DNA of 46,076 bases from assembly GCA_015222555.1 (NCBI GenBank), contig JADFVM010000320.1, positions 1 to 46,076 of the forward strand, given 5' to 3'. Positions 5,709-46,076 of this stretch are shown one piece after another. The stretch is from Pseudomonadota bacterium (lineage in GTDB: Bacteria > Desulfobacterota > JADFVX01). The position numbers were made by a program, and so were the translations under genes. Position 1 is the stretch's first letter, and each line of letters opens with the position of its first letter. The notes under the pieces were generated by a model that was not told the DNA's origin, ran no database searches, and saw nothing but the letters and a program-made list of their open reading frames with translations.

Positions 5709-6592
5709 AATACGCCTACTACCCAGGTTGCGCCGCCGAAGCGATTATGAAAGAAGCTGATGAGACCACCCGTCAGGTGGCTCGTATCCTTGGCATTGAA
5801 CTGATTGATATGAAAAATGCGACCTGCTGTGGGGCAGGCTGCCTCGATGAGGCTAACCTGGAGCTCAGTTATGTTATTAATGCCAGAATATTTGCTATCG
5901 CAGAAAGTATGGGCCTTAATAGTATTATGACCATATGCAGTACATGCCTGCAGACAATGACAAAAATAAACCAGGAACTTCAGTCCGATCCTGAATTGCT
6001 TGAAAGAGTGAATAAGGTTTTAAGAAAAACGGGTACAGAGTACAGAGGAAACGTTCAGATGACCCATCTTTTATGGGTGTTGGTGAAGGATTACGGTCTT
6101 GACAAAGTCAAAAAACATGTTAAACGACCCTTGAATATGTTAAATGTTGCGGCATTTTATGGCTGTCATACACTGCGTCCGGCTGAAATCCTCGGCTATG
6201 AGGACCCTAGAAATCCCAAGTCCCTTGACCTTCTGATTAAGGCCCTGGGTGGAAAAACAGTAGATTATAGAGGAAAGACCCGTTGTTGTGGCTTTCATAC
6301 TCTGCTTGTTAACGAGCGGGCCTCTCTTAAGGCCGGTGGTAAGAGGCTTCAGGAAGCGAAAGACAAAGGGGCGGATTGTATGGTAACGCCCTGTCCATTA
6401 TGTGATGTGTCGCTCGATGTTTATCAAAGTGAGGCTGAGAAGCTTTATCAGAAAAAAACCCAACTTCCTGTCTTTAATCTTTCTCAGCTCATCGCCCTGG
6501 CGCTTGGTGTTGATGTTAGTGATCTCAGTTTCAGAAAACACCTCGTTTCTCCCAAAAAAATTATCTCGGCGGTTATCGCAGCAGAGGGATGA
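5705..6592 (+). CDS. CCG-domain (HdrB-like) subunit of a type E succinate:quinone oxidoreductase / thiol:fumarate reductase-like enzyme
   Basis: Two cysteine-rich CCG motifs (NATCCGAGC and KTRCCGFHT), plus CSTC and PCPLC. Its start overlaps the sdhB stop as ATGA. Confidence 0.8.
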   Translation: MKYAYYPGCAAEAIMKEADETTRQVARILGIELIDMKNATCCGAGCLDEANLELSYVINARIFAIAESMGLNSIMTICSTCLQTMTKINQELQSDPELLERVNKVLRKTGTEYRGNVQMTHLLWVLVKDYGLDKVKKHVKRPLNMLNVAAFYGCHTLRPAEILGYEDPRNPKSLDLLIKALGGKTVDYRGKTRCCGFHTLLVNERASLKAGGKRLQEAKDKGADCMVTPCPLCDVSLDVYQSEAEKLYQKKTQLPVFNLSQLIALALGVDVSDLSFRKHLVSPKKIISAVIAAEG

Positions 6593-8148
6593 AGGACAAT
6601 CAATATAAATTTCAAAAGCCGGATTCAACAAAACAGGACTCACCCGTTAAGCAAGACCCCTTTAACGACCCAAGATTGGCCCTGCTTGAAAATATCAGTA
6701 ATATCGTCGGCGCTAATCTTGACGTTAAAAAACTTCTATTTCTTATCCTTGATGCTGCGGCGCCTGTAATAAATGCAGAAGCCAGTTCTCTCCTTCTCGT
6801 AAGCAGTGACAGAAAAAAACTTTACTTTGAAGCGGCTACAGGTCCTAAATGTGACGAAGTGCGGCATTTTGAGGTAGATATGGGCAGCGGTATAGCCGGC
6901 TGGGTTGCTGAAAATGGACAGCCGCTTCTTGTTGCCGATGTGCACAAAGACAAAAGGTGGAGCAAAACCGTTAGTGACGCTGTTGCGTTTGAAGCAAGGT
7001 CCATCGCCTGCGCACCCATGAAGCATGAAAATGAAGTTATCGGCGTGATGCAGATGGTCAACAAAGCTGATAAGAAGCCCTTTGACGAGAGGGACCTGGC
7101 GCTGCTGTCTGCTTATACAAAAGTAGCGGCTGTCGTCATTTCGAGGACAAAGTCCTTTCAGAATATAACGAGAGAAAATATAGGCTTAAAAAAGGCCCTT
7201 AGTCCAAAGGGGAGAATTGTTGGGGAATCTGAAAGCCTGACAAAAGTCATCAATAATGCCCTCAAATCTGCAAGAACGGATTCAACGGTATTGATCACCG
7301 GTGAGAGCGGGACAGGTAAAGAACTGTTTGCGAGGCTGCTTCATGACAACGGAAAGCGGTGCAAAGGCCCTTTTATTGTTGTCAATTGTGCCGCTATCCC
7401 TGAAAACCTCATCGAAAGTGAATTTTTTGGACATGAAAAGGGATCTTTTACCGGTGCGTTGTCAAGGCAGCTTGGAAAGTTTGAATTAGCTGATGGCGGG
7501 ACACTCTTTCTTGATGAAATTGGAGATATGCCAATAGGCTTACAGGTCAAACTTCTAAGGGTGTTGGAAGAGTCAGAGATACAAAGAGTGGGAGGACAGG
7601 AGCCCTTAAAAATCGATGTCAGAGTCATATCTGCAACTAATAGAGACCTTAAAGAGTCTATTGCGGCCGGCCAGTTTAGAAAGGACCTCTATTACAGGTT
7701 AAATGTCGTTAATCTTCACCTTCCGCCATTAAGGGAAAGAAAGGAAGATATTCCACTGCTTCTAGAGTTTTTAATCAATAAATATAACAAGGAATTGCAC
7801 AAGAATTTTGTCGATATTTCCAATGAGGCATTAAGTTGCCTCATTGCCCATGAATGGAAGGGAAATATAAGGGAATTACAAAATCTGATTGACAGGATTA
7901 TAACATTGGAGGATGGTCCAACTATTCTCCCTGAACATCTGCCCTCAGAGTTAAGGAATTGTGACCTCAAAATGGAAAGTGAAGCGGGCATGAGTGGTGA
8001 CTTGAAAGAAGCGCTTACAGTATTTAAAAAAGATTTTATCAATAAAACTCTTGAAAGTGTTGATGGCAATAAAACAAAAGCTGCAAAAATATTGAATGTA
8101 CAGCGCAGTTATCTCTCCAGAATGGTCAAAGAATTGGGCATAGAATGA
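6589..8148 (+). CDS. Sigma-54-dependent transcriptional activator with N-terminal GAF domain (no receiver domain)
   Basis: AAA+ sigma-54 interaction module: GESGTGKE (Walker A), GSFTGA (GAFTGA-type loop), LFLDEIG (Walker B), RVISATN and FRKDLYYRL. C-terminal Fis-type HTH: NKTKAAKILNVQRSYLSRMVKELG. The N-terminal ~170 aa are GAF-like. The ATG overlaps the stop of the preceding gene (ATGA). Confidence 0.9.
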   Translation: MKDNQYKFQKPDSTKQDSPVKQDPFNDPRLALLENISNIVGANLDVKKLLFLILDAAAPVINAEASSLLLVSSDRKKLYFEAATGPKCDEVRHFEVDMGSGIAGWVAENGQPLLVADVHKDKRWSKTVSDAVAFEARSIACAPMKHENEVIGVMQMVNKADKKPFDERDLALLSAYTKVAAVVISRTKSFQNITRENIGLKKALSPKGRIVGESESLTKVINNALKSARTDSTVLITGESGTGKELFARLLHDNGKRCKGPFIVVNCAAIPENLIESEFFGHEKGSFTGALSRQLGKFELADGGTLFLDEIGDMPIGLQVKLLRVLEESEIQRVGGQEPLKIDVRVISATNRDLKESIAAGQFRKDLYYRLNVVNLHLPPLRERKEDIPLLLEFLINKYNKELHKNFVDISNEALSCLIAHEWKGNIRELQNLIDRIITLEDGPTILPEHLPSELRNCDLKMESEAGMSGDLKEALTVFKKDFINKTLESVDGNKTKAAKILNVQRSYLSRMVKELGIE

Positions 8149-9047: not shown

Positions 9048-10637
9048 TTGCTGCAATTAATGATGACCATGCCAGATAAACGCCTGTTGACTCCCCGTAC
9101 TTCTCTTTATCTGCTTTTTACTTTCTTTCTTATCCTAATATTCAACCAACTATTTTTAGGTGCTCCGCTTATTACGATCTTTGTCGTTTTTCTGTTGATT
9201 ATTCCCTTTTACCGGCTCTTTACAGAAGAATCAGGTCATGGAGCAGTTCTCACAATCGAAACAAACGGTGACGGACTTGAGCAAAAATACCAGGAGCTGG
9301 AAGCCTGTTTATCCCAAGGAAAACGCCTTGTCGCTGATTTTCAAGAGAAAGCTGCTTTAATGGTTTTAAGCGCAGAAGCCCAAGCAGATTCTCTCGGGAA
9401 GACGACAGCTTCGTTAGACGGAATCAACGAAACAATAGACAAAACTGTTAATAGGGTTGATGACCTTTTCTCTTTAACAGATAGGGCGTCTATTTCAACT
9501 CATGGTGTTGTTAACTCCATTAATGAAGTTAGTACTCATAATAAAAATATGCTTGAAGTGGTGGCTAAATCTTTGACAGATGTAAAAATTTTAAGCAACT
9601 CGGTTATGAAAATAAAAAACAATTTTACAGATTTAAGTGAAGCCTCTAAAAAAGGTGCTACGGCCATTCAGCAGGTCAACGTTTTTGCCAAGGAGATCGA
9701 AGAGAATGCACTTAAATCTCATGAAATGTCAGAGGATGTATCAAGAGAGTCTGAACTTGGTGTATCAGCGGTAATAAAGACAATTGAAAGTATGGATAAG
9801 ATTAAAAAAATTGTGTCGGAATCGTCATCAGTAATCAAAACTCTGGGTGAGAAATCAGGTGAGATTGGAAGTGTCATAGGCATTATAAATAATATAACAA
9901 AGAGAATTAATCTCCTTTCTCTTAATGCCTCCATTATTGCATCACAGGCGGGTGAACATGGAAAAGCTTTTGCTGTTGTCGCCGACGAAATGGAAAAACT
10001 GGCCAGTCAAACATCGTTATCTACCGTCGAAATCAGCGAATTAATTAAAATGACTCAGGAAATGGTAACCAATACGGTTCAGTCTAACGAAGTGGGCATG
10101 TGGGGTGTCGAAGAAGGTGTGACGCTGGCCAATCAGGCAGGAGATATCCTTAATAAAATTCAGGCCAGTGCAGGCGCTTCCCTGTCCATGTCAAAGATGA
10201 TCTTAATGTCAACTAAACATCAAAGTGAAATGGTTGAAAAGGTCTTTGAGGCTATCTTTGAAGAGGGAAGATATTTTGATACGGCAAGCAACTCCATTAA
10301 TGGACACATGGAAATTAGTGAGTCTGTTGAAAAATCCACGGAAGAGGTTGTTCATATTTCAAGCAGTGTAAGGAAAGATATTGACAGGCAGCTAATAGCT
10401 TCTGAGGATGTTTTAGAAGTGATTAAAACGGTGACGGATACTGTAAAAGATTTGGAAAAACTTACAAAGCAACAAATCATAGACGGTGAGCGGATCAAAC
10501 AGGCTACAGAGATGATGACCTTTATAACAAATGAAAATGTGACAAAAGATTTAACATTAGAAGTAGAAAGAATCAGAGCTGTGATCAACTCAATGGAGGA
10601 AATTGTTTTTCCTCAAGCTTCAACCACAGCGGGATAG
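9048..10637 (+). CDS. Methyl-accepting chemotaxis protein (two N-terminal TM segments, long helical cytoplasmic domain)
   Basis: Signalling hairpin tip LLSLNASIIASQAGEHGKAFAVVADEMEKLASQT. The hydrophobic N-terminus is LYLLFTFFLILIF...LITIFVVFLLII. The start is uncertain: TTG at 9048 or the ATGs at 9060-9069. Confidence 0.9.
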   Translation: MLQLMMTMPDKRLLTPRTSLYLLFTFFLILIFNQLFLGAPLITIFVVFLLIIPFYRLFTEESGHGAVLTIETNGDGLEQKYQELEACLSQGKRLVADFQEKAALMVLSAEAQADSLGKTTASLDGINETIDKTVNRVDDLFSLTDRASISTHGVVNSINEVSTHNKNMLEVVAKSLTDVKILSNSVMKIKNNFTDLSEASKKGATAIQQVNVFAKEIEENALKSHEMSEDVSRESELGVSAVIKTIESMDKIKKIVSESSSVIKTLGEKSGEIGSVIGIINNITKRINLLSLNASIIASQAGEHGKAFAVVADEMEKLASQTSLSTVEISELIKMTQEMVTNTVQSNEVGMWGVEEGVTLANQAGDILNKIQASAGASLSMSKMILMSTKHQSEMVEKVFEAIFEEGRYFDTASNSINGHMEISESVEKSTEEVVHISSSVRKDIDRQLIASEDVLEVIKTVTDTVKDLEKLTKQQIIDGERIKQATEMMTFITNENVTKDLTLEVERIRAVINSMEEIVFPQASTTAG

Positions 10638-11017: not shown

Positions 11018-11362
11018 CCTGTTGGAGATGCTATCTTTTCCGACTTTTTACCGCAATCTGTTTCCTGCCACTTGCAGGATTTAGGTGACAGCGGTAATAG
11101 ACTGAAACCCTGCGCAAATATTACTATGAAATCTATTGCTGAAGGTTATGGTAGGAACAGTTTAGGCATTATATTGACAGGTATGGGCGACGATGGTACT
11201 CAAGGTGCTGAAGCGATGAAAAAGAGGGGGGCAATTATTTTTGCCCAGGACGAGGCTTCATCATGTATATTTGGTATACCTCGTTCAGTCATTGACGCGG
11301 GCTACGCCGATGCTGTTATCTGTCTCAATCAGATGGTGGACCGCATCCTTTCGCTTCAATAA
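11018..11362 (+). pseudogene. cheB: cheB 3' fragment (C-terminal about one third of the methylesterase catalytic domain)
   Basis: The frame reads KPCANITMKSIAEGYGRNSLGIILTGMGDDGTQGAEAMKKRGAIIFAQDEASSCIFGIPRSVIDAGYADAVICLNQM. This is colinear with the intact CheB in this window (APSVDKMFTSVAEIFEERAIGVILTGMGNDGKNGVKKIKRSKGYIIAESEETAIVYGMPREAVNAGAVDKILPLNDI). The REC domain and the GSSTGGP and HMP catalytic blocks are missing. Confidence 0.7.
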
Positions 11363-11419: not shown

Positions 11420-11478
11420 GGGCAGGTATGCTTGGGCAAATGGCCCTATTTTTTATTAATTTAGATAAAGGTTAACTG

Positions 11479-33972: not shown

Positions 33973-34049
33973 CGGGGCGTAGCGCAGCCTGGTAGCGCAC
34001 CTGAATGGGGTTCAGGTGGTCGGAAGTTCAAATCTTCTCGCCCCGACCA
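33973..34049 (+). tRNA. tRNA-Pro (anticodon GGG)
   Basis: Hand-folded cloverleaf: acceptor CGGGGCG/CGCCCCG, D-stem GCGC/GCGC, anticodon stem CCTGA/TCAGG with loop ATGGGGT, T-stem GGAAG/CTTCT with TTCAAAT, and an encoded CCA. Confidence 0.9.
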
Positions 34050-37488: not shown

Positions 37489-37565
37489 GCCCCCGTAGCT
37501 CAGGTGGATAGAGCGCCGGTTTCCTAAACCGTAGGTCGTATGTTCGAGTCATACCGGGGGCACCA
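37489..37565 (+). tRNA. tRNA-Arg (anticodon CCT)
   Basis: Hand-folded cloverleaf: acceptor GCCCCCG/CGGGGGC, D-stem GCTC/GAGC, anticodon loop TTCCTAA, T-stem GTATG/CATAC with TTCGAGT, and an encoded CCA. Confidence 0.9.
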
Positions 37566-44147: not shown

Positions 44148-44338
44148 AGACTCAAATTTTGAATTCAAATGGAGTGGATAACATGTGACCAACTATGAAT
44201 TGTTTTCATGATCTGATAAAGTTTTCATGGCATTTTCAAGATTCCTTTAAAATTCGTTTAGAAAGTTACGCCATCAATTAGAAAAAATAATCTGACATAA
44301 CAATATCTTATGCAAACAATCTGATTTTCCTCTTATTC

Positions 44339-44354
44339 GTGGCACCTTCATTGC
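44339..44354 (+). promoter_or_regulatory. Sigma-54 (RpoN) -24/-12 promoter TGGCAC-N5-TTGCA
   Basis: Exact match to TGGCAC-N5-TTGCW, with the GG-to-GC spacing of the consensus. It lies about 270 nt upstream of the ATG at 44624 and about 35 nt upstream of the riboswitch P1 stem. Confidence 0.65.
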
Positions 44355-44389
44355 AATAAGATACTTTAGTTTAGCAGTTAGCATTTTCA

Positions 44390-44511
44390 CTCTGTAAAGA
44401 GCAAACCAGGAGAAATCCTGGGACGCAGAGCCACGGGGCTAAGAAAGTTGTTTAAAATGAGGAAGAAATCTTTCCATTTATTTCACTTTCAAGTCTGCCG
44501 AGCCGCCAGAG
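44390..44511 (+). promoter_or_regulatory. c-di-GMP-I (GEMM-I) riboswitch aptamer
   Basis: The core GCAAACC-AGGA-GAAA-TCCT-GG-GACGCAGAGCC (44401-44432) matches the conserved GEMM-I core. P1 is CTCTG/CAGAG (44390-94 / 44507-11). The second helix pairs CGG-GGCT with AGTC-tg-CCG and is extended by GAAAGT/ACTTTC and GGAAG/TTTCC. Confidence 0.8.
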
Positions 44512-44536
44512 AAATTAATCTCAGGCGGTTTTTTTT
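44503..44536 (+). terminator. Intrinsic terminator serving as the riboswitch expression platform
   Basis: CCGCCAGAG-aaattaat-CTCAGGCGG followed by T8. The 5' arm contains the P1 3' strand CAGAG. Confidence 0.8.
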
Positions 44537-44623
44537 GCACTTTTTTTGTAAAAGGAAGACCTGATGTAATGGTTAAAAGTATAAAAAAACTTTAAGAATT
44601 AAGTTACGTATGAGGAGGTTGTT

Positions 44624-46075
44624 ATGTCATCATCAAATTTATTACTCCAATGGTCGAGTCAAGCGGCGACCTCTATTTTAATATGGATTGTCATTGCAGT
44701 CATTCTCTTGTACGCTGCTCGCAAGCCGGCCCATGAATTAATTTTTTCTCTTTGCAGATTAATTCACAATGCCTTAAGAGTTGCAGGCCGATCTATTATG
44801 ATTGCAGAAAAGAAACTCGCAGACCGTAACAGGGAAGTCCTTCTTGCCGCCGGCGAAGAATCTGTTCAACGATTAATAGAACGTGAATTCCATCGGGTCA
44901 ATGCCGTCGTCAGCCGTGACCTGAGTGGGTATCCTGCCTTTCAGCGTTCATTGAAAGATCAGATTACACGGATCGATGAAGATTACCAGAAAAGCGTTGA
45001 AATTCCACCTTCACCACCGGGCTGGATGCCTGCTGTTGAAGCGGTGGCCAAAATTCCACCCACAGGTGATACGATGGTGGCCAATATTCTGAAAGATATC
45101 AATAAATCAATAGATAAACAACATAACAGGGCTATTGAAGAATATCGCAAGGCAAGCACTGTAAGGCATACTCTTCTTAAAAAGATGATGCCCTTCTGGC
45201 GAAAAATGTCTAATACTCTGGATGAAGTGGATAAGACCATTTCAGGCCTCCTTGAGCGCTCCAAATTCATCGACAGCAAGATGGAAGAGTATGAGCAGAT
45301 CAGAAAGGGCTCTGACAAAGCGGTACGGACGCTGTCATCTTCCTCTATGACTCAATTTGTTATTTCAGGTTTTGTTCTGCTAATAGCGATTGGCGGCGCC
45401 GTGATTAACTTCAATCTTATTGCCTTGCCTATGTCTGAAATGGTCGGCGGCAGCAGCTATATTGGCGGCTTCAAAACCTCAAATGTTGCTGCCATGGTAA
45501 TCATTCTTGTCGAGGTTGCCATGGGCCTCTTCCTTATGGAATCACTTCACATAACCAAGCTCTTTCCCATCATCGGGAGCATGGATGATAAAATGCGGCG
45601 CCGCATGGTCTGGATTTCTTTTTCCATTTTATTTATCCTTGCCGGTATTGAATCGTCACTGGCCTATATGCGTGACATAATCGCCGCCGACATGCAGGCA
45701 TTAAGACAATCCCTGGCTGATGTTACCGCTTCCGGTGAGGTTTCTGGTAGCTGGATCCCCACGGCAGGTCAAATGATAATGGGTTTTATCCTGCCCTTTG
45801 CACTGACCTTTATTGCTATCCCGCTTGAGTCCTTTATTCATTCATCCAGAACGGTTTTAGGTGTTTGTATGGTGGGATTGCTAAGGGTGAGCTCATTTTT
45901 ATTAAGGCTATTTGGGAACATTTCAAGATCAGCAGGTGTAATGTCTGTAGCGATATACGATCTGATTGTCTTTGCGCCTTTGTGGTTCGAGGGGCACCTT
46001 CGTGGTATGAGTAATAAAAAAGGCGAAAAGGCCGATACTTCAGTTGAACATGTTGAGAATGGAGAAATATCATGA
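44624..46075 (+). CDS. Uncharacterised polytopic membrane protein (N-terminal TM, ~200-aa helical soluble region, then about 6 TM segments)
   Basis: 483-aa ORF with a GAGGAGG RBS. Hydrophobic segments include ILIWIVIAVILLYAA, FVISGFVLLIAIGGAVINF, VAAMVIILVEVAMGLFLM, MVWISFSILFILAGI, MIMGFILPFALTFIAIPL and GVCMVGLLRVSSFLL. I recognise no family. The next ORF starts at 46072 (ATGA overlap) and leaves the window. Confidence 0.8.
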   Translation: MSSSNLLLQWSSQAATSILIWIVIAVILLYAARKPAHELIFSLCRLIHNALRVAGRSIMIAEKKLADRNREVLLAAGEESVQRLIEREFHRVNAVVSRDLSGYPAFQRSLKDQITRIDEDYQKSVEIPPSPPGWMPAVEAVAKIPPTGDTMVANILKDINKSIDKQHNRAIEEYRKASTVRHTLLKKMMPFWRKMSNTLDEVDKTISGLLERSKFIDSKMEEYEQIRKGSDKAVRTLSSSSMTQFVISGFVLLIAIGGAVINFNLIALPMSEMVGGSSYIGGFKTSNVAAMVIILVEVAMGLFLMESLHITKLFPIIGSMDDKMRRRMVWISFSILFILAGIESSLAYMRDIIAADMQALRQSLADVTASGEVSGSWIPTAGQMIMGFILPFALTFIAIPLESFIHSSRTVLGVCMVGLLRVSSFLLRLFGNISRSAGVMSVAIYDLIVFAPLWFEGHLRGMSNKKGEKADTSVEHVENGEIS

Positions 46076-46076
46076 A

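Follow-up and report, generated by a model that had tools for sequence, protein, structure and literature searches.

A predicted sigma-54 promoter in series with a GEMM-I-class riboswitch of predicted ON type, probably for 3',3'-cGAMP, before a predicted membrane-protein operon

The DNA analyzed here is a 46,076-nucleotide stretch (positions 1 to 46,076 of the forward strand of contig JADFVM010000320.1, assembly GCA_015222555.1) from a Pseudomonadota bacterium placed by GTDB in the Desulfobacterota (JADFVX01); the whole stretch is referred to below as the window. Close to its 3' end lies a long untranslated leader in which a sigma-54-type promoter motif is followed by a riboswitch aptamer, an intrinsic terminator and a gene for a protein of 483 amino acids (Table 1). 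As judged from the sequence, the leader regulates a conserved operon of two or more genes headed by a predicted membrane protein. The membrane assignment follows from reading the hydrophobic C-terminal helices of the product and not from a transmembrane prediction. No Pfam family was found for the protein and its NCBIfam matches fall far below the cut-offs. Its homologues number more than 5000, and many come from metagenome-assembled genomes (MAGs) labelled Deltaproteobacteria, Desulfobacterales or Nitrospirota.

Table 1. Positions of the leader elements and of other features in the window.
Feature	Position	Strand	Details
Possible enhancer (activator-binding) repeats, GTTTTCATG x2	44202-44229	+	Copies at 44202 and 44221, 19 nt apart
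Sigma-54 promoter TGGCAC-N5-TTGCA, TGGCACCTTCATTGCA	44340-44355	+	Exact consensus; -24 GG at 44341-42, -12 GC at 44353-54
Predicted transcription start	44365-44367, near 44366	+	From the usual -12-to-start spacing; leader of ~258 nt
P1 5' strand, CUCUG	44390-44394	+	CUCUG/CAGAG covaries with CUUUG/CAAAG in L061 and L072
J1/2, UAAAGA	44395-44400	+	Last base, A44400, is the ligand-specifying position (Rfam alignment, model position 11)
P2	44401-44426	+	Closing pairs G44401-C44426 and C44402-G44425; hairpin 44406-44421, GAAA tetraloop 44412-15
J2/3, AGA	44427-44429	+	A44427 is the A47 equivalent (intercalating); G44428 is position 48, consensus A
P3	44430-44503	+	Tetraloop-receptor-like CUAAG 44439-43 / CAAGU 44490-94
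J1/3, GC	44505-44506	+	C44506 is the C92 equivalent, pairing the ligand guanine (G-beta, Watson-Crick)
P1 3' strand, CAGAG	44507-44511	+	Common to aptamer and terminator 5' arm
Intrinsic terminator	44503-44536	+	CCGCC-A-GAGA (44503-12) / UCUC-A-GGCGG (44519-28), T8 at 44529-36
Leader motif TGTAATGGTTAAAAGTATAAAAAAA	44565-44589	+	Follows the terminator; resembles a motif of riboswitch-less orthologous leaders
Shine-Dalgarno GAGGAGG	44612-44618	+	Sequence
Regulated gene, 483 aa	44624-46075	+	Predicted all-helical; long helical region, then hydrophobic C-terminal helices
Next gene start	46072-46076	+	ATGA overlap; in relatives a ~213-aa product, then a PF02594 gene
Enhancer-binding-protein gene	6523-8145 (about)	+	GESGTGKE Walker A and GSFTGA loop; lies 37 kb before the promoter
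tRNA genes (two)	33973-34046, 37489-37562	+	Rfam tRNA, 60.8 and 64 bits

By sequence and predicted fold, the leader RNA from 44390 to 44511 is a GEMM-I-class cyclic-dinucleotide aptamer. The Rfam family RF01051 (c-di-GMP-I; c-di-GMP, cyclic di-GMP) matched positions 44390-44510 of the plus strand over the full model (1-87) with 57.9 bits (gathering score 35, E = 7e-9). A search of the region alone gave no match to c-di-GMP-II at E <= 10, and RF01051 stayed the best-scoring member of its clan. This search had been proposed as a check in an initial annotation made from the sequence alone, which had drawn a GEMM-I architecture starting at 44390; the full-length match and the covariation described below bear that architecture out, and its P1, GAAA-capped hairpin and P3 helices all lie where they had been placed. 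To compare loci, orthologues of the downstream gene were gathered from genomes and assemblies (loci are designated by L numbers), and Rfam detected GEMM-I aptamers upstream of several of them. A custom covariance model built from six orthologous leaders found 13 aptamers in 12 of 85 sources. In the six-leader alignment, 93.5% of the cells at paired positions were paired, compared with 29–56% in register-shifted controls, and 12 of 26 pairs showed compensatory changes; such changes were seen in three of six pairs of the P2 hairpin and in four of nine pairs of the P3 core. P3 also carries a distal extension of 37 nt (44443-48/44485-90 plus 44461-75). At the sequence level both a GNRA tetraloop and its receptor are present, with CUAAG/CAAGU agreeing with the model's CUAAg...AuGac. 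The ligand contacts A47 and C92 are retained in the alignment as A44427 and C44506.

An unusual form of this aptamer is found at the locus of the closest relative (L081:1339-1502), where the downstream protein is 90% identical. Here the P2 hairpin contains an insert of 38 nt that moves the GAAA cap off the helix end, and the aptamer falls below the Rfam threshold while scoring 68.5 bits with the custom model. The sigma-54 site and the terminator of this locus are intact, and its aptamer may be a decaying or remodelled riboswitch.

The terminator begins within the aptamer. Its 5' arm, 44503-44512, takes in C44503 of the outermost P3 pair, C44506 and the whole 3' strand of P1, so that 44503-44511 are shared. 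The 9-bp stem is broken by an A.A mismatch, and the hairpin alone has a calculated energy of -17.3 kcal/mol. The initial annotation had described a 9-bp stem followed by T8 and sharing CAGAG with P1; the sharing is correct, and the nine pairs are not continuous. Because the terminator arm overlaps C44506 and the P1 3' strand, aptamer and terminator exclude each other, which points to an ON switch and agrees with the earlier suggestion that P1 closure and termination are alternatives and that the ligand is an ON signal. A ligand acting in this sense would also match the design of pilM in Geobacter, an ON switch for cGAMP (3',3'-cyclic GMP-AMP) for which the same arrangement has been established by experiment and in which the terminator sequesters the ligand-pairing C75 (PMC9262584). 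About 17 nt separate the completed P1 from the completed terminator. The terminator is kept, with sequence changes, in seven other loci (L081, L083, L084, L082, L061, L035 and L004). Metagenomes were also scanned for the riboswitch variant found here with the pattern AGAGCAAAC-N12-22-GACGCAGAG, which matched at least 120 contigs, and a crude pattern count among the matches listed found CCGCC...GGCGG with a T-tail after 56 of 96 variant aptamers.

One base bears on the identity of the ligand. A44400 aligns with the highest posterior to RF01051 model position 11, the base just 5' of GCAAA, which corresponds to G20 of Vc2, G11 of Cd1 and A14 of Gs1761; this mapping was confirmed with the sequences of the Cd1 G11C and G11A mutants (supplement, PMC9262584). 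The junctions correspond base for base to those of Gs1761 (PMC6274999), with a 6-nt J1/2 ending in A, A44427 after the closing pair and G-C at 44505-06 before P1. The window aptamer thus has an A where the canonical c-di-GMP-selective subclass has G20, and it carries the GEMM-Ib signature of A20, A47 and C92 (A44400, A44427 and C44506), which is common to all nine related aptamers of the lineage. An A at position 20 sets apart the cGAMP-responsive GEMM-Ib aptamers, and swapping A and G there has changed or widened the ligand specificity of Vc2, of Gmet_0970 and of Desulfobacca acetoxidans aptamers (PMC6140456, PMC6456294, PMC9481103). For example, Vc2 G20A binds both ligands (PMC6140456), a cGAMP riboswitch from Geobacter becomes a sensor of c-di-GMP on A20G exchange (PMC6456294), and among otherwise similar aptamers of D. 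acetoxidans the A variant has gained cGAMP affinity (PMC9481103). The initial annotation had noted that the core differs from Vc2 at only a few positions. The likeness in fold holds, but one of those differences is the ligand-specifying position itself, which had been overlooked, and the naming of c-di-GMP as the ligand is not supported as stated, since an A at Vc2 G20 / Cd1 G11 is the change that marks cGAMP-responsive GEMM-Ib aptamers. With A in place of G at the specificity base, 3',3'-cGAMP is most likely the second input of the leader; binding of c-di-GMP may also occur, but c-di-GMP is probably not the sole ligand and perhaps not the favored one.

In the minimum-energy fold of the window leader, the CUCU of the P1 5' strand pairs locally with the AGAG of J1/2 (44391-44401), which includes A44400. 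According to the folding model, A44400 would be masked by this hairpin in the OFF state. The hairpin is limited to the window lineage and is absent from the variants of high G+C content.

Position 20 does not vary alone. A tally was made of 110 aptamers from two alignments (A4 and A5; L001-L184) at the positions equivalent to 44400, 44428 and 44504 of the window. Among A20 aptamers with an aligned 3' junction, J2/3 is AGA and position 90 is C in 95 of 97, a count to be read with the fact that the A20 copies were largely picked by a search pattern requiring G48. The aligned G20 aptamers have AAA in nine of nine cases and U90 in six of nine. The same linkage holds for copies that were not selected in this way, whether they lie in the leaders of orthologues or form a second copy on a contig already matched. 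G48 could pair with C90, mirroring the A42-U73 pair that opens P3 in Gs1761 (PMC6274999). Since pilM of Geobacter is A20/A48, the A20/G48 combination makes up a second A20 subtype.

Several leaders combine both kinds of aptamer. G20/A48 and A20/G48 copies stand in one leader at L088:1246-1655, L183:9078-9429, L149:963-1283 (minus strand), L146:10001-10276 and L089:6708-6987 (minus strand). Such mixed tandems do not form a separate category in a survey of tandem riboswitches (PMC9481103). In L088, a perfect sigma-54 consensus, TGGCACAACATTTGCT (1246-1261), is followed by the G20 aptamer, the A20 aptamer and a terminator, an order that makes it a possible three-input leader. In other Desulfobacterales MAGs, canonical G20/A48 aptamers lie before the same membrane-protein gene as in the window (L079:2518-2606, L068:466-554 and L077:43-131). 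Folding of these leaders, which did not resolve P1, indicates that the aptamer and a separate terminator further downstream, CGCCUUUGGG...CCCAAAGGCG-UUUU, can form together; by this model they may act as OFF switches and would then work in the reverse sense to the A20 ON switches.

The A20/G48/C90 variant appears to lie behind sigma-54 promoters in the window, L083, L088, L166, L174 and other loci, and stands in mixed tandem with G20 aptamers in L088, L183 and L149. We put forward tentatively, and with more doubt than confidence, the broader idea that A20/G48/C90 marks a specificity subclass of its own, widespread outside Geobacter and selective for cGAMP or another dinucleotide, that has repeatedly been wired into multi-input control of envelope and surface genes. 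On this idea the A20 ligand would switch the same gene ON in certain lineages, and in others (L079, L068 and L077) c-di-GMP would control it through G20 aptamers, possibly switching it OFF.

The other element of the leader is its promoter motif. The initial annotation had placed TGGCAC-N5-TTGCA at 44339-44354; the motif is there, one base to the right of those coordinates. It is the only exact TGGCAC-N5-TTGCW in the 46-kb window, where shuffled sequences predict 0.12 (11 of 100 shuffles contained at least one). It has the correct orientation for the downstream gene, lies 269 nt from the start codon and is spaced 58 nt from the aptamer core. Because the window contains a gene for an enhancer-binding protein (EBP), the organism evidently uses sigma-54.

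Comparison across loci provides the support for this promoter beyond the motif itself. The 500 nt before each orthologue were searched for TGGCAC-N5-TTGCW, allowing up to two mismatches but none in GG or GC. Sense sites numbered 45, in 39 of the 84 loci, and antisense sites six. Typical examples are TGGTATGGATCTTGCT and TGGTACGGAATTTGCT, and in the sites as a group the -24 and -12 elements are conserved and the flanks variable. From the proportion of loci and the confinement of conservation to these two elements, the gene family appears to be commonly sigma-54-dependent. Of the riboswitch-bearing loci with enough upstream sequence, a sigma-54 site is present in the window, L081 and L083; L083 thus combines both elements, with TGGCATTTTATTTGCT ~46 nt before its aptamer. 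A similar association was seen in the metagenomes: among the matches listed, 14 sense sigma-54-type sites occur in 23.9 kb upstream of the riboswitch variant where 1.8 would be expected from the control rate (~8-fold, Poisson p about 7e-9), and eight of the 14 lie 58–75 nt ahead of the aptamer core, like the site in the window.

A repeat search upstream of the sigma-54 promoter gave short repeats only, among them a 9-nt direct repeat, GTTTTCATG, ~115–140 nt before the promoter. These candidate enhancer repeats are also kept in L081, and that carries little weight because the whole intergenic region there is ~88% identical. For the same reason L081, whose sigma-54 site is identical to that of the window, was set aside as uninformative evidence for promoter conservation.

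Many orthologues without a riboswitch also have long leaders, with 160–360 nt from the sigma-54 site to the start codon and no Rfam match (L002, L005, L006, L008, L010-L012, L019-L021, L024-L031 and others). These leaders may hold other regulatory elements. Riboswitch-less leaders also share a conserved motif, TGTGYATR-N5-6-GTACAAAAAAAGACAC, found in L005-L008, L010-L014, L016, L021 and L022 at 79 or ~140 nt before the start codon. Changes in its putative stem are uncompensated, so it may be a protein-binding site.

Taken in series, these elements suggest a leader with two inputs, a reading that the sequence supports well. On balance, we think it probable that a sigma-54 promoter is followed here by a GEMM-I ON riboswitch whose most likely ligand is cGAMP. 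The promoter would fire only with an activated EBP, and transcription would start near 44366. The nascent leader would then fold into the aptamer. When ligand is absent, C44503-A44512 would pair with 44519-44528, and the resulting terminator with its U8 tract would stop transcription ~90 nt before the start codon. Bound ligand would lock P1 and C44506, block the terminator and let the polymerase read into the operon. Through A44400, the second input would most likely be 3',3'-cGAMP, possibly along with c-di-GMP.

A number of observations weigh against this proposal, several of which concern the ligand. The selectivity of natural A20 aptamers spans a range from 1200-fold to bispecific (PMC6140456, PMC6456294), and it cannot be read from A20 alone, given that both ligands are bound by the Vc2 G20A mutant and by some A20 aptamers found in nature. 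The window aptamer also departs from the validated Geobacter subtype: pilM has C21-G46, A48 and A-CU...GACGG-AAAG where the window has G21-C46, G48, C90 and A-GC...GACGC-AGAG. In addition, no GGDEF motif or cGAMP synthase (Hypr GGDEF) was seen within the window. The leader could have exactly the architecture described above and yet be an ordinary c-di-GMP sensor, so that the gate would combine an EBP with high c-di-GMP, as the initial annotation had it. The best Rfam family is, after all, c-di-GMP-I; outside position 20 the backbone is nearer to Vc2 and Cd1 (G21-C46, GAAA tetraloop and receptor) than to pilM; A20 aptamers still bind c-di-GMP through an adenine in protonated form (PMC6140456); and the A variant of D. 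acetoxidans lost little c-di-GMP affinity (PMC9481103). The base at position 20 is nonetheless a known discriminator, and its linkage with G48 and C90 suggests a distinct pocket under selection. Moreover, G20 and A20 aptamers stand side by side in single leaders (L088, L183, L149, L146 and L089) and alternate upstream of orthologues of the regulated gene, which is hard to explain if both bind the same ligand. We therefore regard a plain c-di-GMP sensor as unlikely, although it is the alternative to be taken most seriously.

Other difficulties for the proposed series of a sigma-54 promoter and a cGAMP switch concern the origin of the transcripts. There is no terminator between the end of the sixA-like gene (44147) and the leader, so read-through could also enter the leader. 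A weak sigma-70-like site (9/12 match) lies at 44292-44320, and the riboswitch-bearing orthologues L061, L072 and L035 have TTGACA-type (sigma-70) promoters before the same riboswitch. No cognate activator was identified: a scan for the GAFTGA motif found EBP genes within 3 kb in just two of 84 orthologous loci. Sigma-54 may thus not be the sole source of leader transcripts. Of the gate that the initial annotation had proposed, in which both an EBP and c-di-GMP are required, the serial layout is well supported by the sequence and the strict AND logic is not supported as stated. Taken to its limit, this line of argument holds that the sigma-54 motif is not a working promoter, or not the only one, that transcripts come from the GATase/sixA-like operon or a weak sigma-70 promoter, and that the riboswitch is the only real input. 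We consider this improbable, more so than a c-di-GMP sensor, since the consensus is perfect, its 58-nt spacing to the aptamer core is like the 61–75 nt of other loci, and sigma-54-type sites are widespread before the gene family; the identity of the site in L081 points the same way, although that region is generally conserved. Finally, a highly improbable alternative, that the A20/G48/C90 aptamer senses another cyclic or linear dinucleotide and neither c-di-GMP nor 3',3'-cGAMP, would suit the strict covariation of positions 20, 48 and 90 and a subtype unlike the validated Geobacter one, with the Rfam practice of keeping pocket-altered GEMM-I variants as separate families within their clan (of which two matches with lower scores were suppressed here) as background, but A47 and C92 are unchanged, the base at the alpha site alone differs, and the sole tested A variant from outside Geobacter gained cGAMP binding (PMC9481103).

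The energetics are also unfavorable at first sight. The fold with the terminator is calculated at -55.6 kcal/mol and that with the aptamer enforced at -38.7 kcal/mol, making the terminator ~17 kcal/mol more stable. Because the terminator is the thermodynamic minimum, switching by the proposed ON riboswitch must be kinetic and aided by tertiary and ligand energy that lie outside the folding model.

The closest characterized relatives of the window riboswitch are pilM of Geobacter metallireducens and Gs1761 (pgcA) of G. sulfurreducens, which likewise have A at the Vc2 G20 position and keep A47 and C92. As predicted for the window, pilM is a transcriptional ON switch in which terminator and aptamer are exclusive and a ligand-pairing C is sequestered (C75 in pilM, C44506 in the window), and tandem copies, a further common feature, occur in relatives (L061). 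On the other hand, the window aptamer has the 37-nt extension of P3, its host is not a Geobacter, and its target is an uncharacterized predicted membrane protein, whereas the Geobacter targets are cytochrome or pilus genes. No sigma-54 promoter is reported for the pilM and Gs1761 riboswitches in the accessible literature. Vc2 of Vibrio cholerae and Cd1 of Clostridioides difficile share with the window the fold, the GAAA tetraloop and receptor, G21-C46, A47 and C92, but they have G20 and A48 instead of A20 and G48, and in Cd1, an OFF switch, terminator and aptamer are present together, unlike the exclusive pair in the window. The cluster-3 variant of D. acetoxidans is comparable in another respect. 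According to its published description (PMC9481103), it is a c-di-GMP-I-like aptamer with A for G in a deltaproteobacterium other than Geobacter, is predicted to be an ON switch and belongs to a multi-input leader; its second input is a tandem adenosylcobalamin riboswitch, in the place of which the window has the sigma-54 promoter.

The serial logic of sigma-54 initiation followed by leader antitermination is already known from systems with protein antiterminators. In Klebsiella, nasF has a sigma-54 promoter activated by NtrC and leader antitermination by NasR. In Geobacter, nifH combines an RpoN promoter with a leader terminator, the activator being GnfM (of GnfL/GnfM) and the antiterminator the ANTAR protein GnfR (PMC2995071). 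In the nifH/GnfR system, as proposed for the window, an EBP must act before transcription can initiate at a -24/-12 promoter, and it takes a second signal to get the polymerase past an intrinsic terminator in the 5' leader. The second sensor is a protein in nifH, whereas in the window it would be the RNA itself, with a cyclic dinucleotide as the signal. No paper describing a riboswitch as the second input behind a sigma-54 promoter was found, within a literature coverage that was incomplete.

The label "c-di-GMP riboswitch", which the window aptamer receives automatically, is probably incorrect, or incomplete at the least. By its pocket base, the aptamer is predicted to respond to cGAMP, and this in an uncultivated lineage far from Geobacter, the nearest MAGs being labelled Deltaproteobacteria or Nitrospirae; if true, Hypr-type cGAMP signalling would extend further than is now known. 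The uncharacterized family of predicted membrane proteins seems to depend on sigma-54, to which some lineages have apparently added a checkpoint for a cyclic dinucleotide, and the pairing of a second messenger with sigma-54 would provide a functional handle on its more than 5000 unannotated members. The window leader is a testable candidate for a natural promoter-AND-riboswitch gate, and in vitro tests of both the 20/48/90 linkage and the mixed tandems of G20 and A20 aptamers would be inexpensive.

The 483-aa protein had no match by tblastn on the at least 120 variant-bearing metagenome contigs; the riboswitch variant controls many other genes. A sigma-54-like site together with an A20 riboswitch was seen in two metagenome contigs of high G+C content, L174 (minus strand, open reading frame (ORF) from reverse-strand position 1313) and L128 (minus strand, ORF from 284). 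The downstream products are secreted proteins with repeated TAPGDDG...YDIRY modules that by eye are fibronectin-III-like. At L203:1411 the same pair of elements precedes a large surface protein in which Ig-like repeats followed by a beta-helix can be made out by eye. The genes in L174, L128 and L203 are typical "environment and membrane" targets.

The function of the 483-aa protein was also approached through its structure, and this route was given up: the AlphaFold model from a 14-sequence alignment had a mean local confidence (pLDDT) of 57 and a predicted template-modelling score (pTM) of 0.26, too poor for a fold search. Elsewhere in the window, a sigma-54-like sequence with two mismatches, TGGTACTCAAGGTGCT, lies at 11194-11209 on the plus strand, in the 840-nt gap between an ORF that ends at 10634 and one that starts at 11476. 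Going by its sequence and position, it may be another sigma-54 promoter.

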